The translations under genes were made by a program, and so were the position numbers. The notes under the pieces are model-generated. The model made no database searches, was not told the DNA's origin, and saw only the letters and a program-made list of their open reading frames with translations. This document shows, in pieces, positions 1,224 to 64,000 of a stretch of DNA of 64,000 nucleotides; position 1 is the stretch's first letter, and every line of letters begins with the position of its first letter. Source of the DNA: Blasia pusilla (taxonomy: Eukaryota); assembly GCA_050084515.1 (NCBI GenBank), contig CM114271.1:5084001-5148000 (forward strand). Reading direction: 5' to 3'.

Positions 1224-1553
1224 CAAGGTTGCAAGTGGACAAAGTTTGTGTCCGCGGACATATCCATGTTCGGGGTCTTACATTCGTGCTATTGAAGAAT
1301 TTGTCCATGTGGACCCCACCTTCCCCTTCTTTTTCATTCCCTCCACTTGCCTTCAAGTTCCATACTTCCCCGTTTCTTCCTCCCTCGATATCCAGTCCCT
1401 CCCTCCTTATTGCCTCACTCGTCCTTACCCTACCTTCCATCATAAGCTATAAGTGTGGGGCCCACCTCTTGTAATTCATATTTGTGGACATGTCCAAACT
1501 TGCCCGTGCATGTCTATCCCAAGGACAAACTTGCCCATTTCTATACATCCATG
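1224..1553 (+). mobile_element. hAT-type MITE, copy 2
   Basis: Starts caaggttgca, degenerate right TIR tatacatccatg. Perfect 8-bp TSD tatttctc at 1216-1223 and 1554-1561. Confidence 0.85.
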
Positions 1554-9852: not shown

Positions 9853-10519
9853 CTAATACACTACCCATTGAGACCGTGCTTGCATCCACACATGAGTATC
9901 ATTGAGGTTCCTCATCTCACTAGTACGATGAATAATCATAAGCAAATTGCGCTCTTAACCATAGAGAAAAAAGTAAGGGGAAAAGGATACCTACTTGCTA
10001 AACCTATAGCCCACTTCCAATCACAAAAAAATTTAGCTCTAATCTCCTACGCAACCTCTCTATAAGCCATATTTGTAGAAAACCCTCTTCAGCATGTGGA
10101 AAATTTTCCATATTAGACCGTACACCTTAAGATGACCTTACGATTGTTGTATTGTGCTCAATTAATGTTTGATCACTCGAGATCTAAAACCAACTAAAAA
10201 AATCAATATTTTTGTTCGTCAGTATATTTACTAATACCTAAGATTCATTCAAAATTCAAATTCAATTTAAGAATTCATACTCTACTCCTTTACTCACTTT
10301 GTGTGAAAATTTAACCAATTATATTGACTCCAATAAATTATTGGCCATATTCCAAAAATAATGGTTGTCCCACTCCATAATAGTAAAGGCCATACAAAAT
10401 CCAAACTCTATTTGTAGCCTAAAACGATAATTTAGAGTGGGTGAAATTATGGAGTCAAAGCATAAAAAGATGTTCAGACACTACCACATACTATGAATAT
10501 GAAAAAAAAAAAATCTTAC

Positions 10520-13500: not shown

Positions 13501-14370
13501 CACTTCGTTAGAGCAACCTCTCCTCCATAAACATATGCGGTCATCATGACACAAGGGATAATCACTAGTTTAGGTTACCATAGGTATATTATACATAGGG
13601 GTATCCTTCTCATAAACATGCAACTAAATCAAAACCCCTATTTAGATGATGGCGGTGTCGAATATCAATAATGTTTCCATGTCTTGTGGTTGTTGTTCTC
13701 ACACACCGTACATAAACTTTATTGGAAATAAAATAACCACTCCATTATCAGACGACCATCTTGGCCCATAGGATCGAAGCTATCATCTCCAAGTTATTTA
13801 GGGTGAACCCCATTGAGTATAACATTACTCCACCAACAAAGATAACATTACTCCACCAACGAAGATATCGTCACTATTGTCTTGGCCCACAACACTGACT
13901 CATCTGTGGGATGCTTTAGTCTAAACCATATCAATATCTCATGTTGCCCAAAATCAACTCAAGTTAGGCCCAAACATATAAAACTTGCCTTCCCTACTAT
14001 GAAGGGTTGCAGTCTTGAACCCAAGAAGATACATTGCAATAAACAAATTTGAGCTTATGGCCTAACCAAATGAAGTATGTCACCTTTGTCATATCATTTA
14101 TCATCGAGCAAGAGTATGTAGCATGCCTCGATAGGGAAGCTATGTATGTAGTTAGGTGTTGAGGGTCAAGGAGTGACGAATTGATCTTCCTTGGTAAGCT
14201 CCGTGCAAATGTCATCCTTTAGAAGCTTTGTTGGAAGTTCTTGATTTGTTATGGACCTATTGTACAAGTTGAGGTGACATGTATGTATATTTCAACTTCT
14301 TCAAGCCTTGGGAGCCTTGAGAGGGGTATATCCCGATGGAAGGCTTGAATATGTTCATCTCCCCTTAATT
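10520..14370 (-). mobile_element. Old degenerate copy of the DNMT-carrying gypsy element (PR-DNMT-RT-RH-INT N-terminus)
   Basis: Colinear with about 40000-44080. GLENFYQWYIQGFITIAKPL (RT/RH linker, about 11500), integrase Zn-finger region at about 10540-10680, DNMT motifs at 12400-13360. Confidence 0.8.
12400..13360 (-). pseudogene. DNMT3-like C5 cytosine methyltransferase relic (second copy)
   Basis: VRALDLFRGI (motif I); IARCPCRGYLSVGCRSGLGDPKAMFFWEMMRIL (motif IV); IVNRIDMPHATLPMLVTFLASYAYKEGSPGLI; GQEVDLNYLTRI (motif X). Confidence 0.8.
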
Positions 14371-17300: not shown

Positions 17301-17784
17301 AAACCAAGTCATTTAGATGTAATGACACTAAGATTATCGATACATTATATGACTTGAGTCATGAGGTAATGAATTATTTATGTATGACTGATGAGTCAAT
17401 ACATATATTGACACGTTGGCATCTTGAATGGCAATATGACTTCCATGTAGGACACTCCTAGCTTGACACGTGTAATGGCTAAGTCATAAAGGCCCATACC
17501 ATGATGACTAGGATGTCGATAAATAAATAATTGACCTAAACGTGTCTCCATACATATTTGACATGTGGATTAATTGCCTCATTTATATATTCCATGTCAC
17601 ATGATGACGAGGATTTTCACGGACAAACCACAAATGGCCACGTGGAGTTTTTCAAATTACTATGTGACACATGGAGGAAATTATAGAGCCATATGTGCAG
17701 ATGAGGAATTCCTTCAAATGTGTACTTTTCTAACACATATCCCTTGTTGTATAGTTGGTAAGTTGTAAAGTCATACGTATAATT

Positions 17785-17990
17785 CTTGTTAGTCATATAT
17801 ATAACTTTGTCAATCATATGCATGACTCTGGTAGTTACATGTATAACTTTTTCAGTCATATGCATGACTGTGGTTGTCATATGTATTACTTTGTCAGTCA
17901 TTTCCATGACTCTGGTAGGCATGGATATGAATATGACTAGAGTAATTTAATATGACTTTTTCAGTCACATGTTTATATATATCATGGTGG
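17785..17990. repeat. ~42-bp tandem repeat (about 4 units) in the CACTA subterminal region
   Basis: Repeated tttgtcagtcatatgcatgactctggtagt..atgtataact. Confidence 0.7.
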
Positions 17991-18078
17991 GGAGTCATAT
18001 GTGTGGTTATAAATTTTTTAATTGAAAACTACATGCATAAGATGTTTGACTTTCATAGTCATGAGAATAACTCAAATG

Positions 18079-19764
18079 TGTCGTGCGCATACACATCGCT
18101 ACACATCATACATGGTTGTCACCAAACACACACACAAACACGTACAATCCCATGTTAACTCATGGCATCCAAACAACGAGACAAGAAGTACCAAAATATC
18201 TCGAATTAAAGTAAGATCCGATCTCTCTCTACACAATCTCACACCATAGCTCTCAAAGGTGTGCACTCTCTCTCATGTCAAACCAAACCCACTCTCCTAA
18301 TGAGAGGCTTGGGTTACACTCACAAGGCAAGCGACCATAGCTCTGCCCCCTCATGCCAAGAGGTTCAATAAAGAGAGAATGAGCTCTCAAGCTCTCTGTC
18401 TGCGCATACATATCGCTACACAACATACATCGCTGGTCACATCTACACCACACAACATTGATCTTCCCCACACATGTACAAAAATCAACTCATACATATA
18501 CATGGAGATCACAAAAAAAAAGAGTAGTAAATACGGCACACCCGGCCTAAAACTCCACTCCTCAATCTACATCGACATATCGAGCCTCGTCCACCTTGTG
18601 CTATCAAGGAATCCGGACGCTAGCACCCTAGTCCTATCTCACACACATACAAGGGAGGTGCTCCAACGGCCCAACATGAGAAAGATGGCTTAGGAAAGCC
18701 ATCTTCCTCTCTTATATAGGGTTGGGAAGAGCCAAAAGGCTCTTCCCCTAAAAATAGCCCTCCCCTTGGTAACCTGCACGCACAAGTTACCAGGGGCGGG
18801 TGACCTGGTCAACAAGTCACCCGGCTGTAAAAGACCTCAACATGAAAGTTGACAGAAACGACGTTCTTGACACAATCAACCTATCCTCAACCTCATCCGA
18901 CACCGTGGGACAAAGTTACACTCAAGATAGTCCGCTGGCTCCTACGCCCTATCCACGATAGATCTCGGCTTATCGGCTACTCAGATGTGACATCTCTCTC
19001 CTTGGGATATATATACCCCTCCCCTCTCCCAAGCTCTCTCAATGGCAACCTATTCTCCCAAGTCACCTCCTTGGCTCTTCACATGATGTAGGAGGTCAAG
19101 GGTCACTTACCAAAAATAGAAAGACGATCATATACTCAAAATGGTACTTACCTAAAATAATAAGTTTCTCAATATGGCTCCAAATGAGCCAAAACGAATG
19201 GGAAACCTGCTCTCTCAGGTTTCCCGGGGCCTCAGCAGGTCATCCTTGACCTCCTAGCATGTCCTCCACTACTCTTGAAGACGCTCTACTAGATCTCACC
19301 GATCTATCCTAAAGGACGTGACAACTGTCGTGCGCATACACATCGCTACACAACATACATCGTTGTCACTGAACACACACACAAACACGCACAATCCCAT
19401 GCTAACTCATGGCATCCAAACAACGAGACAAGAAGTACCAAAATATCTCCAATCGGCCCTCTACCTGGTGGTTAGGTCCCTCTAACTCCAGATAGCCATC
19501 TATCCCTACCTACCATGACATATATCTCTCAGACTCTAAGAGCAAGAAGGCCGGGTGCTCGTGTGGCTCCATCGTTAGTCGCCTTCTTTTCATCCATGTC
19601 AGAGAAAAAGTCGGGATCGAATCCTCAATATGGCTCGAAATGAGCCAAAACGAAGGGAAACCTGCTCTCTCAGGTTTCCCGGGGCCTCAATAGGTCATCC
19701 TGTCCTCCACTACTCTTGAAGACGCTCTATTAGATCTGACCGATCTATCCTAAAGGACGTGACA
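18079..19764 (-). mobile_element. Internally deleted split-repeat retroelement (subfamily 1): partial A1-3'UTR-B1-A2-B2
   Basis: On the minus strand: A1 5' part 19625-19764, 3'UTR 19454-19624, B1 19326-19453, 2-bp spacer, A2 about 18208-19323, B2 18079 to about 18207. Perfect 4-bp TSD aatg at 18075-18078 and 19765-19768. Confidence 0.88.
18397..18992 (-). mobile_element. Solo A+B terminal unit, subfamily 2, nested in A2 of the 18079-19764 element
   Basis: TG...CA ends, perfect 4-bp TSD tctc. One terminus is homologous to the B end (tgcgcatac..atcgctacacaacatacatcg). Confidence 0.85.
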
Positions 19765-33800: not shown

Positions 33801-35788
33801 GGACTCTGATGGATGGAAGGGACTACACGGACTGATGTAACTTGTGCCTTATGCAATGGTAAAGGGAAGAAAAGGGTATTAATATGCGGAGATTGCCATC
33901 TTCGATTTCCAAAGTCACCGTTGCCTACCTATCTTCTTGAAGATATAGTGTATAGATAAGATACAAATGCAAGTTACACGAGCACATTATCTTCGTTTAT
34001 ACTAGTGAAATGGACTGCAAAGTACTTGTAATGAACATTGTGAATGACACATTTAAAATTGGCTAAGAGTTTAAAACATGAGAAGGTGCATTATGGATTG
34101 AATTAATGTGTTGTAAGTGTGAGCAAAAGGATCATTAGTTGAATAAATCATACATATATCAACAATGTATACCTTTGAATTGTTGTACGCAGGTGGCAAG
34201 CATGGATTTGAGTAAAAATATTCTCACTATGAAAGTAATAGGTGGTAAATAGCAAAAAGAAAAATTGCATATGAGTGAGATTGGAAATGATTTTATGTGT
34301 ACATGTGCAGTGCAAAAAGTAAGTTGGATAAGGTAAAGAGCAACATGAAATTTTATGACGGAGTTTGAAATGAAACATTCAATGTAAATAAATCAAAGAA
34401 AATAAAAGTGGGTGGTGATCACAATGATTGTAAAAGTATGCTCACAAAGACACTTTTGCACCCAAGTTTGAGTGTTGTTGGTAGAGACCTTATGAAAATA
34501 TGCCCAAAAAAATCCTGGGAGAAACAAAAATTGCTAGAAGTTATAGGAAGACAACTTGAAAATCTTCAAGTGTACGTGAAGTAGGTAAAGAGAGCATTAT
34601 ATGACCCTTTCCTAATCAAATACATTAGATGTTACTCCATCTTCTATGGTAATCACTTCACCCTCTACAGTCACGAAACATGGATTGAATCAAATCTAAC
34701 TGAAGTGACAACTTTTGGACTATTTTCTAGTAGAGGATGTATGTGCTTTTCAAAATAAAAAATCTGATCTCTTACCTGTTTTAATTGCTTCTTAATTCAC
34801 TCAACTCGGAATACTAATCCTGGTTATCCTCTAGTGCAAAATTAACTTCTGTAAAGCTTGGAACAATTAAACAAGAATTGGTTAGATGTTTAAAGTTTGA
34901 TTTGAAACAAGACTGTAAAGACAGTAGAACATACATCATGAATTGCATGAAAAAGTATGCAATACAATGGTAAACACATTGGATTCTTGTGTTTCATTGA
35001 GTGGATATATCAAACACTAAATTATGAAATGCAATAAGAAAGAGAATTTAAGAAAAAATGAATATATAATTTAGTATGTGGAAAAGGTAAACTTAAAATA
35101 TTTGATAAAATATTGAATGATGTGCACAGAGGTATAAATGAGTGAAAATTATACACTTGTATTAAGTATATGTATTGTAGTATGAGAGTTCGAAAAAATA
35201 ATAGATATATATATATATAAGAATATATGCCTAAGAAAGCATATATGAACTGAAAAACCATCATAGTCATGTCTATAACTAAAAGGAATGCTTTGAAAAT
35301 CTATGGAAAGCATATGGGAATATAAAAAGTGTCCAAAAGAGAGCCAAAAGTGGGAAGTAACGTTGTGAAAATGTTGAAGGCATATGCCAAAAGGAAGAGC
35401 ATCATGGTGACGTCCACAACTGCACAAAAACCATGTGATGATCAAGAACATACAACAATATCAAAACTCAACATGGAGAGCATGGAAAAAATTGAACATA
35501 TTTAAAATGGAATAGCTAATGACATAATATCTATACTTGGATTTGGAAAGAGTCCTAAATGAACTAGGCACACTTTCGTTTGTTTGGTGACCCGATAAGA
35601 AGGTTTGGCTCAAAGCTATCCTTTGGGACAATGGGTATGGCTAGAACTTCTTCTAGGCTTTGTGAAGTTTGAGGGAAGGAAGAGGTAGTAGCATGTGTAT
35701 TGCCATTTCTAGGAGTTGATGAGACAACGATAACATCCTCAAAATCAAGAAACAAGGAGGTTATTGGTGATTTTCTAGGTCAATAGGA

Positions 35789-36304
35789 TGTCACGTCTTT
35801 TAGGATAGATCGGTGAGATCTAGTAGAGCGCCTTCGTGAGTAGTGGAGGACAGGCTTAGTAGGTCGAGGATGACCTGATGAGGCCCCGAGAAACCTGAGA
35901 GAGCAGGTTTTCCCTTCGATTCGGCTCATTTGGAGCCATGTTGAAGAACTTACTATTTTAGATAAGTACCATTTTGAGTATATGATCGAATTATTATTTT
36001 TGGTAAGTGGCCCTTGACCTCCTACATCAGGTCAAGAGCCAAGGTATGACTTGGGAGAATAGGTTACCATGGAGAGAGCTTAGAGAGGGGAGGGGTATAC
36101 CTCAAGGAAAGAGAGTTTGAGAGCTCATTCTTTCTTTGTTGAACCTCTTGGCATGAGGCGTCGGAGATATGGTCTTGCTTGCCTTGTGTGTGTAACCAAA
36201 GCCTCTCATTAGGAGAGTGGGTTTGGTTTGACATTGAGAGAGACATGTGAGAGTGCACACATGTGAGAACTATGGTGTTGTGAGAGAGATTGGATCTTAC
36301 GTTA
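35789..36304 (+). repeat. Terminal repeat A1
   Basis: Direct repeat of 45571-46089. Followed by a GA-rich tract, not by B or a TGG primer-binding site. Confidence 0.9.
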
Positions 36305-38189
36305 CAAAGAGAGAAAAAGAGAAAGAGAGAGTGAGAGAGTGAGAGAGTGAGAGAGCTTCATGGGGGAGCTCACTTGTCACTCGTTTTTTTCCAGTTTAGG
36401 GACTGTTTTCCCCATTCAACGGCTCATGGGAGTGCTCACCGGAGCAAGGGCTGATTTGATTGTTCTTTGCATTTGTCGATTTTTCGTGTGGAAGAGTGGT
36501 GCGCAGAAGCGCTCCCCAATTTTTGATAGGGATTGATTATGGGGGCGGGTTGCCCCATGCCGGTGCTCTCGAGAGCACCATGTAGCTTTCTGATTTGTAT
36601 TTTTACAGGTTTTACATTTTGGTTGGGAGAAATTAGCGCGGAAGGGCTGCCAAATTTTGTGTAGGAGAAAGAGACATTGGGCTTTACGACAATCCCCATC
36701 AGTTTTTACTGGAATGTCCAATTCCAAATATTTTTTTGACGCTGTTGTAGATCGTGAATCTATGCACGTTGTGCAAAAACAGTGCACAATTTGGAGTTGT
36801 GAGTAAAAAGTTATGGTCAATCTTGAAAAATTGCCATTGCTAGGTGATTTTTAGGGTTAAATTGTTCAAACCCTAAACTAGTTGCCACGCTGGCGGCGGC
36901 TGTCACCTTCATAGTCATCGTCACCGGTAAATGGTCAACATCACCATCAACGGTCTATCATCATCATCAACGGTCAACCATCACCGTCAATGGTCCACCG
37001 TCCGCTGGCCACCGTTGGCCGTTGCTGTTGCCCAGCGTTGCTCAAAGCCGCATTCGGCCGTTGTCCACCCTTTGGTTGCCATTGCCGCCATTACAGAGTG
37101 GAGGGTCTTCCACGACGTTTGTTGATTCTCTGACTTGCGTCGCCACCATGTACTTTGTTTTGGCCGCCACCGTCATCGAAGTTTTGTCGTCAACCAGTGA
37201 CGGTAGATGACCTCCAATTATGGTTTTTGAGTTTTTATTTCATGCTGCTATGTTGTGATTGGTAGCTGCTCCACGATGATCGAGTACCGTGCTATGACGC
37301 TCGTAGCTGCAATGCGCCGCCGATTGCCGCGCCGTGCCGTCTTGATCCCGGAGTCACACGTCATTGGGGACCAGAGTGTGGGTTTATTGTTGATTAAGGA
37401 GGGTATGGCGCCAAGTGCCACATCCCACCATCGGGGGCCGTGCCATTTGTAGCCATTCTGTGCCGCCTGCAATGCCGCACTGTTCCGCTGGAACTGCACT
37501 GACTACTGAGGAGTTTTGAGCAGCATTAGTACGAGAGGAGTATGACTTGCTGATTGGAGGATTTGTCTCCACGATCGAGTTGGGGTTGAGATTTGCAGTT
37601 GTTGAGGAGCGACATCGACATGTGTTCAGGTTACCCATTCTGGTCCTTTACCCTGCACGCGTGAGGGATTCTGGGATTTGGGTAGTTAATTTGGGGATAT
37701 TGGGTTGTGTGGATGCTGAGAGCATCATTTATGTATGTGGTTTAGGGCACATAGACATGTGTGGGATGTCCGGAGTTGAGGGTAGGTTGTCGATGAGATG
37801 ATAGCCTGGTCGATTTTCCGCACCACGCCGCTTGTTGCCGCACGTTACACGTCTCGGGGAGGGAGAGTGTAGATGAGTGCTCCATGTTTGGGATGAGTGA
37901 TTGAAGGATTAATCGCGAGGTTGAGAGTGATCGTGTGAGAGGGGCACGAGGGCCATCACGGCGTCCTTTCAGGATTTTGAGAGGCGAGGTAGTGGACTTG
38001 AGAGTAGCTCTGGAGGGTTTACCTGGAGTGGTGCGAGGTTTTGAGGGTCTCCATATGAGAGATCACCTCGATCTCCTTCTATATCATCTTCAAATGAGGG
38101 GGAGCGTGTAGGGGAGTTTGTGAGCACATCGCCACACATTGTGACCGGTCCTACCAGTTGGGCGTACGAGATGGACGATCGGGGTAGAG

Positions 38190-39612
38190 GACCGCGTAGG
38201 TTTTCAAGTGTAGTAGGCACGATTGAGTTGCACAATTTCATAGCAGAGTTTAGGAGTTGATGCGACTCCCAGCGAGCCAAGAACTCTAGAGAGGTCAACC
38301 CGTTTACAACATGGAACGGTATGTTCTAGCATTTAGAGGGGGCGCCCATGGACGATTACCATGAGTTCTCTTAGAGATATGCACGTGAGATCGAGGCGCG
38401 GAGGCTCTACTATGACCCACATTATATGTCATGGACACAACCGTTCTCAGATGAAGAGGAGGAGTTAGTAGAGGCTACTTCCTCTTCCACTAGTGACATT
38501 TTAGGAGGGGTCACTCGCACGGGAGCAGTTGCACCGTCTAGTCGGGTTCGTCCTAGGTTCAACCCTCTAGTTGAGTTCTTTGCTGAGTTGAGGGCAAGCT
38601 ACCAGGGGTATGGACGGAGAAGTTGCAGAGCATCCACGACTTCCAAAGGCGCCCGGGTGAGAGCTTGCGTGAGGCTTACACTCGCTTGCGCCGATTGATC
38701 AACGTCACTCAAGGGGTGACAGAGGCTCAGACTATCCAGTCATGGTACGCGATGATGGACCGGACCCTGCGCACACGGGTGCGGGAGGGGGTGCTTCTTA
38801 TGAACAACTCCCCTATGTTGAGAGATGTTTTTAGGACCGCCAAGAACATTGAGCGCAACATGGCGGAGGAGAGCGTAGCCACCATGGGTTCTGGGCGAGA
38901 GCTGTCACGATTTCCTGCACTACCTGTGCAGCAACGTGGACTACGAGATAGGTCGAGTGTGGCACCACGAGCTCAAGGAGGATACCGGGGGGCCGTGCCA
39001 CAGAGACCTACGCCTTCATATGCGGCTCAACAACAACCGCCTACTATTACTTGTTGGTCATGTGGTGAAGCCCATCATCAGCGTGATTGCACTCGTCAGG
39101 GTCATGGATATGTGCCTCAATATGGAGGAGGAGATGGTGCTGCACTAGGAGGTTATCAATGTGACTATTGTCAGAGGTATGGTCATACACGCGCCAGGTG
39201 TTTCAGTTTACATCTTGAGTTACGTCCGGACCGAGGGCCAGAGAGGGCACCAGAGCGAGTAGTCAGTCCGGGTGGGCCTAGAGAGCGTGCACCAGGTTGT
39301 CCCGTTGGGGGACGAGGAGCTGGAGTTGCCCCACATGATGGTGGAGTTGCCCATGGAGGAGGTAGAGTACCACCACCTAGACGCGCTGAGGGAGACGTTG
39401 GATGTGAGGCTGGGATGGCTGCTCAGATATCGCAGCTACAAGAGCAGATTTGCCGTTATGGCATTGAGGTTACCGATGCCGGATCCGTGGCATTGACATC
39501 ATATGGAGCAGCCAGAGATCTGCAAGATTGTGGTTGGATGTGCGGGGTTGCCCATATGGAGGCAACCGTAGTTGTGGCGCGTGGAGCAGCCGTAGAGTTG
39601 GATCCACAATGA
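38190..39612 (+). pseudogene. gag: gag with two CCHC zinc knuckles
   Basis: FQRRPGESLREAYTRLRRL (retrotransposon gag), CWSCGEAHHQRDC, CDYCQRYGHTRARC. In-frame stops upstream. Confidence 0.85.
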
Positions 39613-40079
39613 GGGAAAGCCAAGAAACAGACTAGGCTTCCTCAGTCTTTCATGTTGTCCGAGGCAATGAGGACCCCATCGATGGGTCCTGATTAGAGTT
39701 TGTGGAGAGTTGGTGATGTTGTTGGTATGCATGCACGGAGGGCGATGGGAGAAGCGAGTGCAACGACTCCTATTGTTGATGTTCAGAAGGGGCATGTGTC
39801 GAGCATGTTTTTGGAGGCGGCCACCATTGTGTACCACCCTCCTTTATTTTTTGCTTCCGATGTGATGACATTGGGGGATACGCCCGCGGAGGCTTTTCGG
39901 CTGGCCGCTACTCTACGTGGGCGTGGAGTTGGAGTTCTTGCATCACATTCAAAGATGATTGCAGAGGAGTTATGGACATGCCCTTGGAGCGGATGCTCAG
40001 GCCGTCCACGTCAGATTTATGGCAAGCTGCGGCTGCTAGGATGGCGGAGATGCCCGCTAGACCCGCAATAGAGCATGCC

Positions 40080-40500
40080 ATGGCTTCTCCTGGTGTTGTG
40101 TTGTTGGATAACCGAGGAGAGGTCTTCCACTTGGTGAGTCCCGGAGGTAGAGCTTTTAGTCCGCAACGCGTCTTGTTGGATTCAAGAGCACAACCCTTGA
40201 TGTTGGTGATAACGTCATTCAGAGGATTGGGCTTGATGAGAGCCGATGTGGAGCGTTTTCCATTCCGGATATAGACATCCTTGGGTGGAGCGAGTACCAC
40301 ACAGTATATCACCCGACAAGAGGTCGTGGTGAGGATTCGCCCGGGACATCCTACAGATGAGTCCGTGGCGCGAGCCAAGGCAATAGTGATTGATGCACGA
40401 GTCCTACGACGTCTTGGTTGGTGGAGCAGTGTTATACCCGATGGGGTTTTCCCTGGATTACTGGGAGGAGTCAGCATCCTACAGACTAGGATGGTAGTCA
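40080..40500 (+). pseudogene. Retropepsin-like aspartic protease
   Basis: RVLLDSRAQPLML (D-S-G motif with G>R), in the expected position after gag. Confidence 0.7.
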
Positions 40501-40889
40501 AATGATGGGCGCCTTAGCTCATTACCCGTTCGATTCACAGGTGCAGTGATCGAGCGACGGCCAAGAGAGGTGGCGACCTTAGCAGCATTTAGCAGTGCCA
40601 TCACGTTGCCTAGTGATTTGATTGAGGGACATGTCCATGCAGACGATACTCCCGTTCCTAAAATTTCTATGGAGAGGAGTGTTATGGTAGCCGCATCATT
40701 CCGTGGAGGAGAGGTGCCGTTGTGGGGCTCGACTGAGGAGCTTCGACGATTGGCAGATGAGCACGTGCATATCACGTGGAGCGAGGCGTTTGCACCGGAG
40801 CGTGACGGGTCTGAGGAACCGAGGTAGCAGGGAGTGCTACGATGACACCCTTGGATACCACACCCATTGTGTGGTGTATCCCGGAGGAG

Positions 40890-41850
40890 GGTATTTGAGT
40901 GTTAGATCTCTTTGGAGGGATTAGCACCGGGTTAGCTGATGTTTTGCAGGCAGGAGTGCGAGTGTAGCAGTACCTGTAAGTGGATAGTGATGATGTTGCG
41001 AGGCCCATCTCACTACGACATGTGGCGCAGTTATGCCTATGTTTTCCCGACTTATTGTCTCCGTCCGTGGTATAGGAATACCAGAGTTCCCTATCGAGGG
41101 ATATTTCGTTGCTGGGGGCGCAGGACTTAGACCGGTTAGGCACCATTGATTTGGTCATTGCCGGTTGGCCATGTCAAGGCCAATCGAGTGCTGGACGAGG
41201 CAGTGGGTTGGCTAACACTTGGTCCATGTTGTTTTGGGAGATGTTGAGGGTCTTACGACAGTTGCAGGAGCACCAGTCTCGTTCTCTAGCCTACATTCTG
41301 GAGAATGTGCCAATCTTAGGAGACTCGAGGTCACGGGTGGTGACGAGTGCTCATCACGTGCGTGCCTGGATCGGCCCAACAGTGTTCTTGGATGCGGTGA
41401 GTGTAGGTTCTAGAGCCCATCGCCCGCATCTATGGTGGACCAACTTGGTGCCCCATGCGGTGTTACGAAGGGCGTATGCGAGAGTGGAGCGCCCCTCCCG
41501 TTTGTTAGTGGATTCCATTCTGGATCCAGGTCGTCGCTCACACGCAATGAGGCAAGATGATCGACCACCATTGATTTTGGTCAACAGGGTAGGCAAGCCG
41601 CGGGCAACCTTTCCCACGTTTGTGAGTTTTCCGCTTCCTATGTATACAAGGAGGCCGGTCCTGGCTTGGTTTGGGATGACCAAGTTCAGAGGTTGGTGGA
41701 GCCCAACGTCGACGAGAGAGAGCAGGCGATGGGATTTCCCACACGAGTGACGGAAATACCGTCAGTATTAGAGGTGTCACGACGCCATGTCTTGGGTCAG
41801 GCGATGGACCTGAACTAATTGACATGGATCTTCAGCTTGGGACTGGCTTA
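40890..41850 (+). pseudogene. DNMT3-like C5 DNA cytosine methyltransferase domain inside pol
   Basis: Motif I VLDLFGGISTGL (40899). Motif IV DLVIAGWPCQG (catalytic Cys 41172). Motif VI LENV (41301). Motif VIII region FLDAVSVGSRAHRPHLWWTNL. After a 1-nt frameshift at about 41633, motifs IX/X EREQAMGFP..SRRHVLGQAMD. Several in-frame stops. Confidence 0.93.
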
Positions 41851-42202
41851 GCAACGTCGGATGAGATCTCGACAGATCACAGCGGTTGCGTTGGTGAGCC
41901 CCATGCCTATCGAGACGATGGAGGCAGTGGCTAGGGGCAAGACCTGAGGAGATCTACACACCATGGGAGATCTAGAGAGACACCCTTGGACTTCTTGGGA
42001 TGTTTTGTAGGTACGCCAGGAGATGATAGCCACAACATCGAGCGTGGTTCCGGGCACTGCACATGGAGGAGATCAGAGTTTGCAGTTGCCTGTAGAAGAG
42101 CCGCCGAGTGTTGTTGTTCGAGACGGGGTTGCACCATAGCAACCACCGATACCTGCGTCGGAGAGTCCTACCGTAGTCACGATGGAGACTTGAGATCCAG
42201 AT

Positions 42203-43630
42203 ATGGGCCCTAAGTTGACAGGAGGAGAGCAGCGCCGAATACATTTGTTCCTCACGAGTTATAGGAGCTACTTTGTGTTTAGCATGGAGGATTTGGGTAT
42301 GCTAAAGGGACCAGGGATCCGCATTGAGTTGTCGAGTGATACGCCGATCTTCCAAAGACCCTACAGGTACAGTGATATGGAGAGGGCTCTGATTGAGAGT
42401 AGGAGCCAGGACTTGGTTGGAGCACGACTAGTGGAGATGTCGCATGGGGAGTATGCATCTGCCACTGTCATGCTCGCCAAGAAGGATGTACATGGCAACT
42501 GGACGGATAGGCGGATGTGTGGAGATTATCGACCTATCAATCGGCAGATAAAGTTCGATAGGTATGCCATGCCCACCGCTGAGGAGATCTTTGATGCAAT
42601 TGGTCACGCAAAGGTCTTTAGTTCATTCGATTTGCAAGCCGGATACCATCAACTGCCTATCAGATTGGAGGACAGGCAGAAGACGGCATTTTGGGGCATC
42701 GATCCTCATGGGAAGGATTATTTGTACCAGTGGCAGTTCTTACCATTTGGGTTAAAGAACGTCCCGGCTGAGTTTCACAGGGTCATGGATAGGATCTTCG
42801 CTGGTATGGATTTTGCTAGGTGTTATATTGATGATATTGTATTCTTTAGCGCCACGATTGAGGAGCATGAGCGACATCTAGAGGAGGTGTTTTGATGATT
42901 GCAATTACATGGGTTGAAGCTACATCCAAGCAAGTGCAAGTTCTTCTACGGCCATATTGAGTACTTGGGTCATACGATATACCCAGAGGGCTTTGGTGTT
43001 TAGGAGAAGAAGGTAAAGGCTATCTCACGCATTCCACGCCCTATAGATGTGAGCCGTGTTCGCGCATTCATGGGATTGCAAACTTTTATCAAACGGTACG
43101 TCAAGGGATTCAGTTTGATTGCGAAGCCGTTGACCTTGCTAACCAAGGTGGATCACGAGTGGCACCGGGGGGATGAGTAGGAGCGAGCATTTCAATTGCT
43201 CAAGGACAAGTTGACGTGTGGGCCCATCTTGAGGAGATCGATCAAGGGTCATCCTTTCCAGTTGCACACAGATTGGAGTATGTTGGGGCTTGGAGCGGTG
43301 CTCACCCAGATGATGATGAGCGTAGAGAGTTCGTGGTGGCTTACGCTAGCCGCTCGAACAACACTGCAGAGGCAAAATACAGCTCGTATGAGGGTGAGTG
43401 CTTGGCTGCAGGGTGGGCTGTCTCACATTTCAGGTGTTACTTATTGGGCAACCCCTTTACCATCATCACTGATCATCAACCACTGAAGTGGTTGATGGAG
43501 TCCAACAAGCTTACAGGGAAGCTTGCGAGATGGGCTCTGTTGTTGCAAGAGTATGATTTTCAGGTGGTACAGAGATCTAGGACGCTCAACCAAGATGCAG
43601 ATGGGTTGAGTCGTAACCCATGCCCGAGTC
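42203..43630 (+). pseudogene. pol: Ty3/gypsy reverse transcriptase and RNase H
   Basis: RMCGDYRPIN, FDLQAGYHQ, LPFGLKN, YIDD (about 42824). RNase H: LHTDWS..LGAVL, EGECLA, TDHQPL, DADGLSR. Stops and frameshifts present. Confidence 0.95.
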
Positions 43631-43971
43631 AGCGAGATGCGATTAGAGCTCGATGGCATGGAGAGAGTGATGAGGAGTCCGTGCCAGGATGGCACGCGTC
43701 AGCCTATTTAGGCATGTTGGCTATGGAGAGCCAGAGTGTGGAGACTTCGATGGCGAGGTCTAGTGGAGAGTCCTTGGATCCCGAGGCCAGTGAGGAGACC
43801 ACAGGTGGTCGAGATATTCATGATGACGGAGTAGTCTTGGAGTACCTTCGTACTGGTAGCGTTGCAAGCACCGTGGGTGCTAGAGAGCGGGATCGGATCC
43901 TACAACGGGCTAGACGGTTCCGGTAGGAGGGAACACATGTTCTGAGGGTTTGGGAGGATGGTAGAGTACGT

Positions 43972-45060
43972 GTGGTGCCGCATCCTTTGCAGAGAGCACG
44001 AATAGTGCAGCATGCCCACGAGGAGTTGGGTCACTTTGGGGTGAAGCGGACGTACAACTTGCTCCAGATTCAGTATTGGTGGCGAGGCATGCAGATTGAC
44101 GTTCAACAGTTTGTTGCTAGGTGCATGGTGTGTGATGGGGTCCGAGCATTGTTCAATGCTTCGACTCCACAATTGCATCCATTACCGATCATGGGCTTAG
44201 GTTATAGATGGAGTTTGGATTTCGCACGACCTTTGAACTTTGACGGAGCATCACAGTCGTTATATGTTGGTGATGGTCGAGCACTTCTCGAAGTGGATCG
44301 AGTTGGTTGCATTGCCTGAAAAAGCGAGTGAGGGAGTAGCTTATGCCTTCCTTGACAGAGTGCTGAGTCATTATGGCGCACCGGCTGAGGTGTTGACAGA
44401 CAAGGGTACCGAGTTTCACGGTGAGTTCCAGGCCTTGTGTGATCAGGCGCTGATCGGCCACCGCACGACTTCGCGAGATCATCCTGAGGCGGATGGATTA
44501 GCGGAGAGAGTTGTGCAGACGATGAAGAGGGGTTTACGCAAGTAAGGCTTGCAAAGAGGTCACCTAGGAGATTGGGACCTCCAGTTGCCATGGTTGGCGA
44601 TGGGATACAGATTTAGCAGGCATGCATCCTTAGCGTTTTTTTCACCTTACTTGCTACTTTATGGCCGAGAGCTAGATTTACTTGCGGCCATTGGTCGAGA
44701 TGCAGGTGAGGTGCTGGACCTTGATGACCCAGATGTATGGATGCGAGCATGTTCTCATAGGGCTGAGTTGTTTTGGAGAGTGATGCCCATGGCGTTTGAG
44801 AACTTGGCGATTGCGCAACATCGGGATACGTTGAGGTATGCGACTATTCGGGGTGGTGGTTATCGACCAAATATCCGGAGGTTTCATCAGGGAGATTATA
44901 TCTACTTGCAGCAGACGGCATCGACGACGTTGGATGTGACTGCAGGGCGCACTATCCTGAGACTCCGTGACGTTTTGCCATCTGGTGTTGTCTTGCTAGA
45001 GGGACGCGATGGTATGGTATGGAAGGACCATGTGCATAATTGTGCGCCATGTCACCTTCC
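43972..45060 (+). pseudogene. DDE (rve) integrase
   Basis: HHCC finger HEELGH..CMVC. Catalytic SLDF, LTDKGTEF, GLAERVVQTMK. Confidence 0.93.
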
Positions 45061-45109
45061 TAACATTGATGGTACAGTAGATCCGAGCTTAGAAGAAGTT
45101 CTTGCAGGC

Positions 45110-45256
45110 TGGCATTATATGTTGTGTGGTTCTGCCCGTGGTACGACCACGATACTAATATGTGATGGATGTTTGAGAGGTTGGCATATGGCATGTGTGA
45201 CGCCATCTCTTAGTAGGGTTCTTTGGGGACGATGGATGTGTCCCAGATGTATATAG
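45110..45256 (+). pseudogene. PHD finger at the integrase C-terminus
   Basis: YMLCGS..ILICDGCLRGWHMACVTPSLSRVLWGRWMCPRC matches C4HC3 PHD spacing (first Cys>Tyr). In frame with the integrase and ends at the pol stop. Confidence 0.88.
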
Positions 45257-45440
45257 AGGAGATACTAGGTAGGTTTCAATTTCGACTTTTTTTGTGACGT
45301 GGATGATAGGAAGGCGACTAACGATGGGGCCATATGAGCACCCGACCTTTTGCTCTTAGTGTTCTAGAGATGTATGTCATGGTAGGTAGGGATAGATGGC
45401 TATCTGGAGTTAGAGGGACCTAACCACCAACTAGGGGGCG

Positions 45441-46215
45441 ATTGGAGATATTTTAATACTTCTTGTCTCGTTGTTTGGATGCCATGAGTTAGCATGGGAT
45501 CGTGGGTGTTTGTATGTGTGTTCGGTGACAACGATGTATGTTGTGTAGCAATGTGTATGCGCACGACAACTGTCACATTTTTTAGGATAGATCGGTAAGA
45601 TCTAGTAGAGCGTCTTTGTGAGTAGTGGAGGACATGCTCAGTAGGTCGAGGATGACTTGTTGAGGCCCCGGGAAACTTGAGAGATTAGGTTTTTCCCTTT
45701 GTTTCGGCTCATTTGGAGCCATGTTGAAGAACTTACTATTTTAGGTAAGTACTATTTTGAATATGTGATCGACTTTTTATTTTTGGTAATTGGCCCTTGA
45801 CCTCCTACATCAGGTCAAGAGCCAATGAGGTGACTTGGGAGAATAGGTTACCATGGAGAGAGCTTGGGAGAGGGGAGGGATATACCTCAAGGAGAGAGAG
45901 CTTGAGAGCTCATTCTCTCTTTGTTGAACCTCTTGGCATGAGGCGTCGGAGATATGGTCTTGCTTGCCTTGTGTGTGTAACCCAAGCCTCTCATTAGGAG
46001 AGTGGGTTTGGTTTGACATTGAGAGAGACATGTGAGAGTGCACACATGTGAGAACTATGATGTTGTAAGAGAGATTGGATCTTACTTTATTGGAGATATT
46101 TTAGTACTTCTTGTCTCGTTGTTTGGATGCCATGAGTTAGCATGGGATCGTGCGTGTTTGTGTGTGTGTTCGGTGATAGCGATGGTATTATGTAGCGATA
46201 TATATGCGCACGACA
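45441..46215 (+). repeat. 3' block B1-(ac)-A2-B2
   Basis: B1 45441-45568 repeats as B2 46089-46215. Junction gcacgaCA-ac-TGtcac at 45561-45576. Confidence 0.9.
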
Positions 46216-46588
46216 AGGGAGAGGAACAAAATCAAGCAACTTCCCATCATCTTGTGTTAGTTTAATATGGTCAAGCGAATGAGTTGCTTTAACATATGAT
46301 AAGTCAAGGAGCATGGAAATTGGCAAATGCATTTCATGCCTATGTTTTTGGAGTTGATCCAAACATATTCCACCAAAAATAAGGTCCGATAGCCTTGTGG
46401 CATCTTTCCTTGTTAGGGACGATTCTTTGAAATCTACATTTATGAAGTGCAAGGCTTCTTTCTCGATTCCCGCAACAAAAATGGATGAAATAATTTGTGG
46501 TTAGATGAAGCTCTTATTTAAGTGAAAGTATAAATGCGAGAGCACAATAGTTTCAATGTAAAAGAGGATACACTGACCTAGTGCTCGT

Positions 46589-47224
46589 TGTCACATATTT
46601 TAGGATAGATCGACGAGATCTAGTAGAGAGCCTTTGCAAGTAGTGGAGGACAACCTCAAGAGGTTTAGGATGACCTACTTTTGCCACGTATAACCTGAGC
46701 AGGTTTCCCCTTCGTTTCGACTCATTTGGAGCCAAATAGAAAAAACTTACTATTTTGAGTAAGTTTCCACATTGAGTAAAGTTGACTTTAAATTTTTAGA
46801 AGTGACCCGCTATAATAGGTCAAGAGCCAAGGAGGTGACTTGCGAGCATAGATTACCGTGGAGAGAGCTTGGGAGAGGGAAGGGGATATACCTCCAAGAG
46901 AGAGAAAGAGAGTTTGAGAGCTCATTCTCTCTTTATTGAACCTCTTCGCATGAGACGGCGGAGCTATGGTCCTCCTTGCCGTGTGTGTGTAACCCAAGCC
47001 TCTCATTAGGAGAGTGGTTTTTTTTCACTTGAGATAGAGAGAGATCGAGTATGCACATTTATGAGACCTTATTGATGGAGAGATCCACTTGATTTAATTA
47101 GAGATATTTTGGTACTTCTCCTCTCGTTATGTGGATTCCAAGAGTTAGCATGTGATCGTGTGTGTTTGTATGTGAATTCGGTCACAACGATGTATGTTGT
47201 GTAGCGATGTGTATGCACACGACA
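46589..47224 (+). mobile_element. Solo A+B terminal unit, subfamily 1 (diverged)
   Basis: tgtcac...acgaca, colinear with 45571-46215. TSD not clearly preserved (tcgt/tgat). Confidence 0.8.
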
Positions 47225-47269: not shown

Positions 47270-48774
47270 TGTTGTGCGCATACACATCGCCACACAACCC
47301 ACATCGCTGGTCACATCTACACACCACACAACATCGATCTTCCCCAACATATAGGTAGATCTACACATAAAAAAAAAATAACACTCACGCATATACACCG
47401 AGATCCCATAATCGTCCCCAAAAATTTGAGTAGTATAAACGGCTCACCCGGCCTAAAACTCCACTCATGAATCTACATCAACATATCAAACCACATCCAC
47501 CCTCCGCTATGAGAGAATCGAATGCTAGCACCCTAACTCCTACACACCCATACACGTATATGCAAGAGAGGTGCTCCTAAGGCTCAACATGAGAAAGATG
47601 GCTTGAGAAAGCCATCCCTCTCACTCTTATATCCTTGGAAAGAGCCAAAAGGCTCTTCTCCCAAAAATAGTTGTGGGTTCGAATCCGACTCCTGCCAAAA
47701 AAGGTCATAAATGGGTGAGAAAAAATGGAGAAGAACTTTCACCTTCATGGAAACTCAGTTCAATCACTCCGCCATCAGAGTGCGGATGAATGCGGAATGT
47801 GTTTACCCAATGATCTATTAAATATAAAACCATGCTTGCCGTGACGATCCACAGGCTCTAAAATAGGGATGTTATGGGGGCCAGTAGATTAGCTTAGGCA
47901 ATATAACCAATGTTTCCAATGAAAATAGAAACTTTCGGCGAGCTCCCGCGCTTCAAATGCAGGGCCCGAGCACTGTCAGACAAAAAAAGGGTCCCAAACT
48001 TTGTTTTGTCGGACATCACAAAACCAAAAAATTGTCCGACAAAACATAGGGCTGAGGACTTTTTTTCCAATGATTCACAACGACTTCTAGCCCTTGTGTT
48101 GGGGTGACGTCTCCCAAATAAAATCCTTGGTTTAGGCCGGCAGGATGGTTGACCCCAAATGCAGGGGTAGACCGTGCTCTCCACGGCCATGGCTGTCGCC
48201 TCCACCACGATCTTTATGTTCTATAGGTTGAGACTTAATGTAGCTTGTTTTATGAACCATCAATTCTAAGTTTAGAGTAGCTATTAGGATTTTTTGAAAC
48301 CGATCCTAGCTTATAGATTTTATTCAAAAAATATGCTTGTATGACTTTTGGTTATTACACTCCCAATGGTAACCTGTGTGCAATATTACCGGGTGACCGT
48401 TGACTTGGTGAACGGGTCACCTGACAGACTAAAACCAAAATAAGGAAATCGCCACAAACAATGTTCTTGATGCAACAGAACTTTTTCCAACCTCATCCGA
48501 CATCTTGAGACGAAGTTACATCCAAACAGCTCGATGACTCTCTATACCGTCGATGTGATAGAACTCTATCTACGTCAAAATAAGATATGACAATTATGGT
48601 GCGCATACACATTGCTACGCTACCCACATCGCTGGTCACATCTACACACCTCACAACACCCATCTTCCCCAACATATGGGTAGATCCACACATAAACGAA
48701 ATGCACTCATGCATATACACTAAGACCCCACAACCGCCCCCCTAGTTGGTAGTTGGGTGCCCCTAACTCCATAT
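47270..48774 (-). mobile_element. 3' end (3'UTR-B1-A2-B2) of a subfamily-2 split-repeat element
   Basis: B2 47270 to about 47410; A2 to 48592 with a ~690-bp insert; spacer at; B1 48595 to about 48733. Then ccgcccccctagttggt, matching the 3'UTR motif upstream of B1 at about 45425-45440. Confidence 0.8.
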
Positions 48775-50660
48775 TTTCATGATTTTTAGGATAGATCGGA
48801 GAGATCTAGTAGAGCGCCTTCAAAGATATTGGAGAATAGCTCAAGAGGTCGAGGATGACCTTCTGAGGCCACGGGTAACCTGAGAGAGTAGGTTTCCTAA
48901 GTTTCTCCAAATAGAGAAACTTACTATTTTGAGTAAGTTTCTATTTGGAGTATAGTTGACTTTATACTTTTGGAAGTGGCATTTGACCCGCTACAGGAGG
49001 TCAAGAGGCAAGGAGGTGACATGCGAGCATAAGTTATCGAGGAGAGAGCTTGGGAGAGGGAAGGGGGTATATCTCGAAGAGAGAGAGCTTGAGAGATTTA
49101 CAAAGAGAGAATAAGAGAGTGAGAAAGTTTCAATGGAGGACCTCACTGGTCACTTGCTATTGGTGCAGGTTGGGAATTGTGGTCCCCGTTCAATGGCTCA
49201 TGGGAGTGCTCAGTGGAGCAAGGGTGCCTTTGGATGTGCTGTGCGATTGCCGATTTTTTGTGTGGAAGAGTGGCGCGCGGAAGCGCTGCCCAATTTTTTA
49301 TAAGGATTGAGTATGGGGCGGGTTGCTCCATTCTAGTGCTCTTGGGAGCACAATGTAGCTTTCTGGTTTTTTTGTTTACAAGTTTGAAGTTTTTGTTGGG
49401 AGAAATCAGCGTGGAAGCGCTGCCAAATTTTGTGTAGGAGAAGAGACGTGGGCTACACGACAATCCCCGTCAGTTTTTATTGGAAGGTTGAATGAAGAAT
49501 CCAATTAAATGAGGTCATACATCGGAAAGTTGTGCACATTGTGGAAGAAACAATATGCAATTTTGAGTTTGGAGCAGAAAGTTGTGGTTGATTGAGCAAG
49601 CTGCCATAGCCACCATGCTACCGTGTGAGTGAAATTTCCAATATTCCTTGGTAATTTCTTGAGTGGTAGAGAAAAATAAAAAAAATCATTGTTACCTTGG
49701 TGGATAGGACAAGGGCACCGGCCCTTGGAAGTAGAAGTTGAGTGGAAAAATTATTTGAGGAGAGTTGACCCACCAATTATGGAGAATGAGTCAATTTGTA
49801 AATTTGTCAGAAGGGGGCAGTCAAGTTAAGCAATTTTAGTTGAGACCCAGTTTTCCCGCGGTGTATTTTAGTAAGAAGACAAAATTTGGTGGGGGGGGGG
49901 GAGCCGCATCCTCTTCCGGGGATGCCGCATTGCCACTGTGAGTGGGGTTGCGCTGCCGTTGTCAACTCTAAACCCTACGTCACTACCTTTAAGCTTCCGC
50001 CTTTGCTGTTCCGTCTAAGCCAGCTGCTGTCAACGTCGGACCAGTTGTTGTAGCCGCTTGACTCTTGTTACTTATTTTAATAAATGGGGCTATTTTGTGG
50101 TCCGACTGAGCCTCTGTCTCCCAACACCCTTCACCATTCCGGAGGGCAAGTGACCTTTAAGGATTGGTGGGGTCCGAGTATTCATCATGCTTTGCTATGT
50201 CGTGATTTGTAGCCGCTCATTGACAATCAAGTACTTTGCCGTGATGCCCGTAGCCGCAATGCGTCGCCAATTTTTGGGCCATGCCGCTCGTGGCCGCACT
50301 GTCTCGATCACGGAGCCGCATCATCATTGTGGAGCAGATTATGTTTTTTTGATTGAGGAGGATATGCCGTTGAGTGCCGCACCCCATTTCTAAGTGCCAT
50401 GTCGTCTGTAGCCGTTACGTGCCGCACCGTACCGCTGGACCTGCACCGCACATCGAGCAGATTTGAGCATCATCAATACCAGAGGAGTACGACTTGCTGC
50501 TTGGAGGAGTAGTCTTCACAACCGAGTTGGGGTCAAAGTTTTTCAGTTGCTGAGGAGCGACATCGACACTTGTTGTTAGGTTATCCATTTTGGTCATTTG
50601 CCCCATACGTGTTAGGGATTTTTGGGTATTGGGAAGTTATTTTGGATAGTCTCACAAGAT
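48775..50660 (+). mobile_element. 5' fragment (partly deleted A1 plus leader) of a subfamily-1 element
   Basis: Homologous to 35789 to about 37700. A is followed directly by the ttacaaagagaga leader. Confidence 0.8.
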
Positions 50661-61778: not shown

Positions 61779-64000
61779 TATCACGTCTTTTAGGATAGAT
61801 CGTGGGATCTAATAGAGCGCCTTCATGAGTAGTGGAGGACACGCCCAGTAGGTCGAGGGTGACTCTTTGAGGCTCTTGAAACCCGAGATAGCGAGGTTTC
61901 CCCTTCGTTTCGGCTCATTTGGAGCCATTTTGAGGAACTTACTATTTTAGGTAAGTACCATTTTGAGTATATGATCGACTTAATATTTTTGGTAAGTGGC
62001 CCTTGACCTCCTACATCAGGTCAAGAGCCAAGGAGGTGACTTGGGAGAATAGGTTACCATGGAGAGAGCTTGGGAGAGGAGAGGGGTATACCTCAAGGAG
62101 AGAGAGCTTGAGAGCTCATTCTCTCTTTGTTGAACCTCTTGGCATGAGGCACGGAGCTATGGTACCTTGCCTTGTGAGTGTAACCCAAGCCTCTCATTAG
62201 GAGAGTGGGTTTGGTTTGACATGAGAGAGAGTGCACACCTTTGAGAGCTATGGTGTGAGATGGTGGAGAGAGAGATTGGATCTTACTTTACAAAGAGAGA
62301 ATGAGAGAATGAGAGAGTGAGAGAGCTTCATGGGGGAGCTCACTGGTCACTCCCTGTTTTTGCAGGTTGGGACCGTGTTCCCCGTTCAGCGGCTCATGGG
62401 AGTGCTCACCGGAGCAAGGGCTGCTTTCATTACTCTTTGCATTTGCCGATTTTTCGTTTGGAAGAGTGGCGCGCGGAAGCGCTGCCCAATTTCTGATAGG
62501 GATTGAGTATGAGGGCAGGTTGCCCCATGCTGGTGCTCTCGGGAGCACCATGTAGCTTGCTGATATGTATTTTTACAGATGTTACATTTTCGTTGGGAGA
62601 AATCAGCGCGGGAGCGCTGCGGAATTTTGTGTAGGAGAAAGAGACATTGGGCTTTACGACAATCCCTGTCAGGTTTTACTGAAATGTCCAATTCTAAATA
62701 TTTTTTGATGGTAGCGTAGATCGTGAAGCTGTGCACGCTGTGCAACAAACAATACACAATTTGGAGTTGCGAGCAAAACGTTATGGGCAATCTTGTAAAG
62801 CTGCCATTGCTAGGTGATTTTTAGGGTTAAATCGTGCAAACCCTAAATCAGCCGCCACACCGGCGGCGGCCGTCGCCATCATAGTCACCGTCAACGGTCG
62901 ATGGTCAACCATCACCGTCAATGGTCAACCGTCACAATCAACGGTCAACCGTCACCATCATCGGTCGGCCGTCACCATCAACGGTCAACCGTCACTGTCA
63001 AAGGTCCACCATCCATTGTCCACCCTTTGGGTGCCATTGCCGCCATTACGGAGTGGAGGGTCTTCCATGACATTCGTTGATTCTTTGACTTGCGTCGCCA
63101 CCACATACTTTGTTTTGGCCGCCACCGTCATCGCAGTTTCTTCATCAACCAGTGAAGGCAGATGACCTCTGGTTATGGTGTTTGAGTTTTGATTTCATGC
63201 TTCTATGTTGTGATTGGTAGCCGCTCGCGACGATCGAGTATCGTGCCGTGACGCCCGTAGCCGCAACACGCCGCCGATTGCCACGCCGTGCCGCTCGTGG
63301 CCGCACCGCACCATCTCGATCGCGGAGCCGCACCGTCATTGTGGAGCGAGTGTGGGATTATTATTGATTGAGGAGGGTATGCGCCGAGTGCCGCATCCCA
63401 CCATCGAGGGCCGCGTCTTTGTTCGTCGAGCCGCCTGCGTCGCCGCAACGCCGCACCGTTCGCCGGGACCGCACTTTGTCTATCGAGGAGTTTTGAGCGC
63501 ATCGATGGAGGAGGAGTATGACTTGCTGATTGGAGGAGTTGTCTCCACGATCGAGTTGGGGTCGAGATTTGCGATTCTTGCCGAGGAGCGACATCGACAT
63601 GTGTTCAGTTACCCATTCGGTCCTTTACCCTACACGTGTGAGGGATTCGGGATTTATTTGGGGATATTGGGTGTGTGGATCGAGAGCATCATTTATGTAT
63701 GTGGTTTAGGGGACATAGACTTGTGTGGGATGTCCGGAGTTGAGGGTAGGTTGTCGATGAGATGATAGCCTGGTCGATTTGCCGCACCACGCCGCGTGTT
63801 ACCGCACGTTACACGTCTCGGGGAGAGAGAGTGTAGATCGAGTGCCGCATGTTTGGGATGAGTGATTGAGGGATTCCTCACGAGGTTGAGTGATCGGGTG
63901 AGAGGGGCACGAGGGTCATCACGAGTCTATTCGGGACTTTGAGAGGCGAGGTGGTGAACCCGAGAGTAGCTCTAGAGGTTTTACGCGGATTGGCGCGAGG
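61779..64000 (+). mobile_element. 5' end (A1 61779 to about 62291, plus leader) of another subfamily-1 element, running off the window
   Basis: Colinear with 35789 to about 38040. A1 is again followed directly by the leader, without B. Confidence 0.9.

Follow-up and report, generated by a model that had tools for sequence, protein, structure and literature searches.

Structure and coding content of the element

The window, that is, the whole stretch of 64,000 nucleotides analysed here (positions 5,084,001 to 5,148,000 of contig CM114271.1 of Blasia pusilla), carries on its plus strand a retroelement, named element 1, which extends from 35789 to 46215. Using blastn of its parts B1, A2 and B2 against the window, its order was found to be A1-leader-body-B1-A2-B2. 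The 5' repeat A1 (35789-36304, +) begins with TGTCAC and is 92.9% identical over 519 bp to A2 (45571-46089, +), the 3' copy of A. The second repeat, the 128-bp B, is present as the internal copy B1 (45441-45568, +) and as the terminal copy B2 (46090-46215, +; its blastn match to B1 starts at 46089/90), both of which end with CGACA and are 90.6% identical (E 2e-46). The element is flanked by AGGA as the 5' target-site copy (35785-35788, +) and by AGGG after the end of B2 (46216-46219), which match at three of four positions. The sequence directly 3' of A1 is ACAAAGAGAG... and contains no TGG, and directly 5' of A2 there are the end of B1 and 2 nt.

Between the repeats lies a decayed pol (40023-45253, +), which was recognised with Pfam and with tblastn of the proteins P0035, P0036 and P0040. 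It is composed of a protease (about 40023-40674), a DNA methylase (DNMT, about 40842-41866), a reverse transcriptase (RT, about 42200-43312), an RNase H (about 43282-44235) and an integrase (H2C2 and rve) with a PHD finger (about 44240-45253), all on the plus strand. The tblastn with these three proteins, which are long database relatives, gave the order protease, DNMT, RT, RNase H and integrase plus PHD and assigned everything but the 5' 3.7 kb (leader/gag), and the pol is colinear with integrase-bearing proteins. In the plus-strand ORFs of element 1, Pfam detected DNA_methylase (PF00145, E 1e-10), RVT_1, RT_RNaseH, Integrase_H2C2 (E 3e-17), rve (E 7e-11) and the PHD finger (E 2e-8), and there was no match to a tyrosine recombinase (Phage_integrase) in 20 such ORFs. 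In the 5' 3.7 kb of the element (leader/gag), no Pfam domain was above the cut-off. The body contains numerous stops and frameshifts. No intact pol was found beside mapped ends in other copies either, those of the metagenome loci L005, L006 and L013 being decayed; every copy read is decayed, and no active copy is known.

With regard to classification, the pol order protease-RT-RNase H-integrase with an rve core, as well as the TG...CA ends with a short target-site duplication (TSD), are those of the Ty3/gypsy elements. The third feature of that group, an identical LTR at each end with the primer-binding site (PBS) and the purine tract (PPT) inside, is replaced here by A only at the 5' side and by B-A-B at the 3' side, with the PPT before B1. 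As for the DIRS order, element 1 has the split direct repeats, and the tyrosine recombinase was not found in the 20 plus-strand ORFs scanned.

Repeat layout and integration ends in other copies

The same layout is found in two other places of the window. The first is a short, internally deleted copy (18079-19764, -), in which positions 1 to about 160 of A1 are followed by 170 bp of the body end, B1, A2 and B2, and which is bounded by the TSD CATT/CATT. Nested in its A2 is a solo A'-B' of a second subfamily (18397-18992, -; TGTCAC...GCAGACA; TSD GAGA/GAGA). The second is a 3' end of this subfamily 2 (47270-48774, -) with the order body end-B1'-A2'-B2', consisting of a G-run (48742-48737), B1' (about 48733-48595), the spacer AT, A2' (48592-47420) and B2' (47419-47270). 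Its A2' is long and includes a tRNA T-arm-like stretch at 47650-47730 (-), possibly a SINE-type insertion; ARAGORN predicted no tRNA gene in the window, this stretch included. Two further 5' ends are present in the window, the A1 of element 2 (48775-49095, +; about 75% identical to element 1) and the A1 of element 3 (61779-62289, +), an element that is truncated at position 64000, where the window stops. Blastn against the window revealed no match to B 3' of A1 of element 1, of the A match 48783-49095 or of the A match 61781-62290. In addition, an old solo A-B, 77-79% identical to element 1, is located at 46589-47224 (+) and has no TSD (TCGT and TGAT, two of four positions). The window also contains a distant Gypsy pol fragment from RT to integrase (10276-12499, -; about 66% identity to element 1), for which no terminal repeats were recognisable in a search for direct repeats in window positions 1-18100, and a tandem array at 4248-5273 of about five units of about 212 bp, which are 61-83% alike.

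As a stand-in for a genome-wide tally, metagenome sequences were scanned with a DNMT alignment, which gave 52 loci; these were analysed by self-comparison and by mapping with the parts of L005. Complete 3' ends consisting of the body tail, B1, A2 and B2 are present in five of them (L005, L013, L016, L043 and L045), so that together with the three in the window there are eight complete B1-A2-B2 3' ends from three families. The 3' end of L006 is cut after A2, and that of L022 is rearranged (part of A2 followed by B2). At the 5' side, A is directly followed by the leader in 15 metagenome loci, of which 13 are independent, identical insertions (L002 and L005, L031 and L032) having been counted once. 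Neither B nor A-B stands in front of A at any of the 16 independent 5' ends of window and metagenome in which the A start is present. Three independent 3' ends have a single B (L010, L051 and L014, the last being the same as L017). Among these, L051:5553-15251 is a complete A-body-B without A2-B2, with the perfect TSD ATTA/ATTA. Such copies may be products of a different cut or deletions between B1 and B2.

The 4-bp TSDs at the A start and the B end are perfect in six of the eight testable copies, namely CATT in the short copy, GAGA in the nested solo, AAGG in L005, TCTC in L013, CACA in L022 and ATTA in L051; the two others are element 1 (three of four positions) and the old solo (two of four). 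The element ends are TG...CA, inverted over 7-8 bp, and A1...B2 is bracketed by the TSDs as a single unit. Moreover, the identities of the A pair and the B pair within an element are similar, 92.9 and 90.6%, 92.1 and 93.8%, and 85.8 and 91.5% in three elements, and thus both pairs look renewed at each insertion.

These data bear on a rival explanation of the layout, in which an ordinary LTR element, with A+B or A as its LTR, underwent a rearrangement or a tandem insertion or received a nested B-A-B mini-element. The solo A-B at 46589-47224 and the single-B ends would agree with it. However, the layout recurs in eight complete 3' ends of three families, B is absent from all 16 5' ends, the TSDs enclose A1 and B2 together, and the A pair and the B pair have diverged to the same extent, which makes this explanation very improbable. 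The split-repeat layout is therefore confirmed as real and recurrent. In these respects the preliminary description is borne out: it had reported the layout A1-body-B1-A2-B2 in element 1 (now found by blastn in the window, and seen in five metagenome loci as well), in the copy with the TSD CATT at 18079-19764 and in the subfamily-2 end, as well as A followed by leader without B at 35789, 48775 and 61779, and it had named complete A+B at both ends, with a PBS, in most full-length copies as the sign of a rearrangement, whereas B stands at none of the 16 5' ends and the layout is systematic. The combination that it had stressed, a PAT/Ngaro-type layout with an rve integrase and 4-bp TSDs, likewise holds.

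Priming sites, junctions and transcripts

Within A1 there is a TATA-like box (36096-36099, +), and after it a stretch, here called X (36124-36139, +), which is a putative transcript start and self-primer. Directly 3' of A1 (36304-36320, +) lies ACAAAGAGAGAA..., which by its complementarity to X is assigned as a decayed PBS of the self-primer type; of its 17 positions, three are mismatched against X of A2 (CTCATTCTCTCTTTGT, 45909-45924, +) and four against X of A1. The intact version is present in element 3, where the 16 nt after A (PBS ACAAAGAGAGAATGAG, 62290-62305, +) are the perfect complement of X in the A of the same element (62115-62130). This 16-nt pairing was reached by none of 2000 dinucleotide shuffles of A and by none of 2000 shuffles of the leader, and an RNA starting from 62115 is predicted to fold with its 5' end paired with the PBS, according to the MFE structure as well as the centroid (z = -4.1). 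In the A1 of element 2, the whole stretch from X to the A end is missing and the promoter part is fused directly to the PBS (ACAAAGAGAGAAT), which could be an aberrant product of reverse transcription or a later deletion.

In the metagenome loci, the PBS is a perfect 17-nt complement of X in L005 and L033, and in L006 a single position is mismatched. In 8 of the 13 independent metagenome 5' ends, the site of best complementarity has a constant position within A, the others being decayed or deleted. X begins 26-28 nt past the TATA box in both families. The sequences of X and PBS are CTCATTCTCTCTTTGT and ACAAAGAGAGAATGAG in the window family and AACATAGTTCTTTGAGT and ACTCAAAGAACTATGTT in the metagenome family, so that both sides differ together, a co-variation which rests on two lineages, as the 5' ends come from two families only. 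A complementarity that is perfect, correctly placed and co-varying suggests that the PBS directly 3' of A is a putative self-primer site of the Tf1 type.

For the plus strand, the G-run purine tract AGGGGGCG (45433-45440, +), which adjoins B1, is a putative primer site. A G-run adjoins the start of B1 in all 12 copies concerned (element 1, the short copy, subfamily 2 and nine metagenome loci), in the form AGGGGG(G)CGA and variants thereof, with at least five G in 11 of the 12; the tract is short, with 6-7 purines. The earlier statements on priming thus need a partial correction: the lack of a TGG PBS after A1 and of a purine tract before A2 stands, the lack of any PBS and of any PPT does not, and priming other than by tRNA is supported. 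Because the PBS abuts A and the PPT abuts B1, the tips expected from reverse transcription are the B start and the A end, not the A start and the B end. Minus-strand priming after B and plus-strand priming at B|A were also considered and were dropped, as the PBS and the purine tract are located elsewhere.

The junction of B1 and A2 (45564-45576, +) reads CGACA-AC-TGTCAC, a near-palindrome with a 2-nt spacer, which is proposed as an internal integrase site. All nine B|A junctions have the form CA-NN-TG with a 2-nt spacer, NN being GC in three, AT in three, AC in two and GT in one, and the palindrome is perfect over 16 bp in L005. In the DNA contigs of run X1, no indels are listed at B|A. The variants of NN would be the expected deamination products of a CAGCTG core. 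A staggered cut after each CA of such a site would give two 3'-processed ends with 2-nt 5' overhangs, which is the usual substrate of an integrase.

The joint between A2 and B2, in contrast to the B|A junction, varies among the copies. In element 1 (46085-46095, +) it is CTTT-A-TTGGAG, which can be read as a U5 tip followed by a U3 tip. A direct joint, give or take 1 nt, is found in element 1, the short copy, the solo, L005, L016, L043 and L045. In L022, the A end is followed by CTCAAAGAA, which corresponds to nt 1-9 of the PBS, and by 6 nt of filler, and in L013 by 17 nt of filler resembling nearby A and by CGA, the 3 nt with which the purine tract ends. Among the subfamily-2 joints, 8 nt of the purine tract are kept in one copy, the B2' of the 3' end at 47270-48774 starting with GGGGACGA; in the nested solo the tract is absent and about 5 further nt of the B start are missing. 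The DNA contigs of run X1 contain many A-to-B joints with 1-14 extra letters (C, CA, TATT, CTTTT and others). Inserts derived from the PBS and the PPT are typical of the junctions of retroviral 2-LTR circles. Judged from its sequence, the A2|B2 joint looks like joined cDNA tips.

Three stranded RNA runs with the same species label were mapped to the 3' region of element 1. In all three, reads pass unbroken from the body end through B1 and B|A into A2, and more than 85% of them share one orientation, the sense one provided that the libraries are conventional. Reads over the A|B joint are scarce (6, 6 and 8 per run) and have no strand bias, the first mate being on the plus strand in 10 of 20, whereas its share in the neighbouring bin is 14% (P = 1.7e-4). 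A genomic RNA in which B1-A2 is included, and which usually stops before B2, would agree with this. In the mapped reads, neither 5' nor 3' transcript ends pile up anywhere and the depth does not change abruptly at X, such signals being blurred by the RNA-seq fragments and by the indels of this copy. A drop in depth past 46019 was considered as a transcript end and rejected, being an indel of element 1 against the family. Apart from this, each RNA run has about 50-60 reads, their first mate on the plus strand, that cover no more of the element than a 36-bp piece of the PHD region (45105-45140) and continue into unrelated sequence on both sides; they look as if derived from an antisense transcript of other origin with a fragment of the element inside it.

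With these observations, a replication in the manner of PAT and DIRS elements can be weighed, in which the integrase would replace the recombinase, the RNA would run from inside A1 to inside B2, and B1-A2 would be the template or splint that restores the tips. As they are described (PMC4157794; PMC7192593), PAT, Ngaro and VIPER are defined by just this layout, in which the internal B|A block equals the two outer ends put together, and some of our RNA reads do span A2|B2. However, such a replication would leave the self-primer PBS at A1 and the purine tract at B1 without a role; it would have the joint inherited through the RNA, yet the joint varies and contains remnants of PBS and PPT; and sense reads over the joint are depleted. 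Furthermore, those elements of the DIRS order have a tyrosine recombinase, for which the 20 ORFs gave no match, whereas the element here has an H2C2 plus rve integrase, TG...CA ends and 4-bp TSDs. PAT-like, Ngaro and VIPER elements are not known to generate target duplications of the integrase type. We therefore regard this manner of replication as unlikely.

A proposed replication route and its relation to known elements

Considering the positions of the priming sites and of the TSDs together, we think that the element probably belongs to a Ty3/gypsy-type lineage in which the ends made by reverse transcription differ from the ends used by the integrase. Starting from the observed anatomy, the TSDs, the complementarity of X and PBS with its co-variation and the variable joint, we infer where the transcripts begin and end, which intermediates arise and how the steps follow one another. 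Transcription would begin within A, about 27 nt past the TATA box, and the first 16-17 nt of the RNA would fold onto the PBS adjoining the A end and prime the minus strand, as in the self-priming of Tf1. The plus strand would be initiated at the G-run purine tract adjoining B1, and with canonical strand transfers this would lead to the cDNA [B.A]-PBS-body-PPT-[B.A], in which the LTR of reverse transcription is B+A. The integrase would then recognise the near-palindrome CA-NN-TG at B|A inside the LTR instead of the cDNA tips. By a cut in the upstream LTR, a processed A start and a processed B end would enter the target with a 4-bp duplication, and the true cDNA tips, the A end and the B start, would be joined in a 2-LTR circle before integration, by end joining of the host after integration, or by a polymerase jump. 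The product, A-PBS-body-PPT-B-A-B, would be the sole arrangement that can be recopied. This route is the simplest account and would cover the layout as well as the TSDs, the spacer of 2 nt, the fact that the A and B pairs have diverged equally, the variable joint with its primer remnants and the solo A-B form.

The polarity of the product needs a separate consideration. A symmetric cut, or a circle, predicts the mirror form A-B-A-body-B as well, and this form was seen at none of the 16 independent 5' ends with the A start present, so that the choice of the upstream site is not accounted for by the proposal. For the same reason, random cutting of a 2-LTR circle is rejected as it stands. The fixed polarity would be explained if the integrase nicked the upstream B|A and the plus strand, having arrived at the A end, jumped to the freed complement of B and copied it through, resulting in a linear DNA ending with B-CA-NN that would undergo the ordinary processing. 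This would also turn the 2-nt spacer into the normal 2-nt overhang and would account for the PBS letters and the filler at the joint. However, it is pure inference, no intermediates of it were observed, and a template in trans would have to be kept at the opposite end of the molecule; we give it a low probability, comparable to that of the PAT/DIRS-style replication. Returning to the preferred route, with an LTR of B+A cut at its internal site, the chances seem about even that insertion through a built-in palindromic site, with the tips joined in every cycle, is obligatory in a streptophyte lineage of integrase-bearing LTR elements, which by its logic would stand between LTR elements and the DIRS, PAT and Ngaro elements and would be a natural instance of integration from a joined LTR junction.

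Parts of this route have counterparts in known systems. As in Tf1/sushi elements and the plant Tcn1 chromoviruses, a tRNA PBS is absent, and the sequence after U5 would complement the start of R; those elements have ordinary LTRs and a chromodomain, whereas the element here has split repeats and an integrase with a PHD finger. For the moss Tcn1 clade, which is related to Tf1/Sushi, self-priming has been predicted (as stated in Neumann et al. 2019, PMC6317226). The integrases of foamy virus and HIV-1 are described to cut the palindromic LTR-LTR junction (PMC1180852, PMC1905944), and the B|A junction is like that of retroviral 2-LTR circles, as described there, in being a symmetric CA...TG site of two abutting ends, which here too would be cut internally by the integrase. 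The retroviral site comes into being only by the joining of the tips, and its part in vivo is under debate, while the site here would already be contained in the LTR and would have to be used. If the route is true, the palindrome on which the integrase acts is an internal one, and the cDNA tips must be joined by the cell or by a polymerase. It would thus offer a natural system to test whether joined LTR junctions, a long-debated substrate, feed integration, as well as a stepwise path from LTR elements to split-repeat elements with a recombinase.

The nearest description is that of KnitGypsy-Dnmt3 from Klebsormidium nitens, to which the legend of Fig. 4c in de Mendoza et al. (2018, PMC5890265) ascribes DIRS-like repeats and Gypsy domains. 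By the wording of this legend, it agrees with element 1 in its defining features, a C5 DNMT domain within a Gypsy-type pol and DIRS-like repeats, and it differs in its host, Klebsormidium nitens as against a liverwort-like one, the comparison being one of descriptions. Section 9 of that account gives no PBS, PPT, TSD or mechanism. Besides this account, taken without its figure and supplements, the literature searched describes no integrase-bearing split-repeat elements, and it contains no treatment of the priming sites, TSDs or integration route of such elements. The combination of DIRS-like repeats, Gypsy domains and a DNMT is thus, going by that legend, already known from Klebsormidium, and is found here in a bryophyte-like host.

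The elements are very abundant, 1.3 kb of the element being matched by 107,085 contig records from a single DNA run, and LTR finders will split them or set their bounds wrongly in annotation; the mis-calling of their ends expected in the preliminary description is supported. With respect to the host range, Gypsy elements with a DNMT, described in Klebsormidium, also exist in liverwort-like genomes and are transcribed there. The nearest named relatives of the DNMT are from Marchantia polymorpha and Calypogeia fissa, with 59-63% identity, followed by Sphagnum; judged by these relatives, the host is probably a liverwort or another bryophyte. The DNMT is located before the RT in element 1 (window 40842-45253), P0035 and P0036, and between the RNase H and the integrase in the full-length relative P0040; given the order in P0040, the DNMT domain has either moved or been acquired twice.
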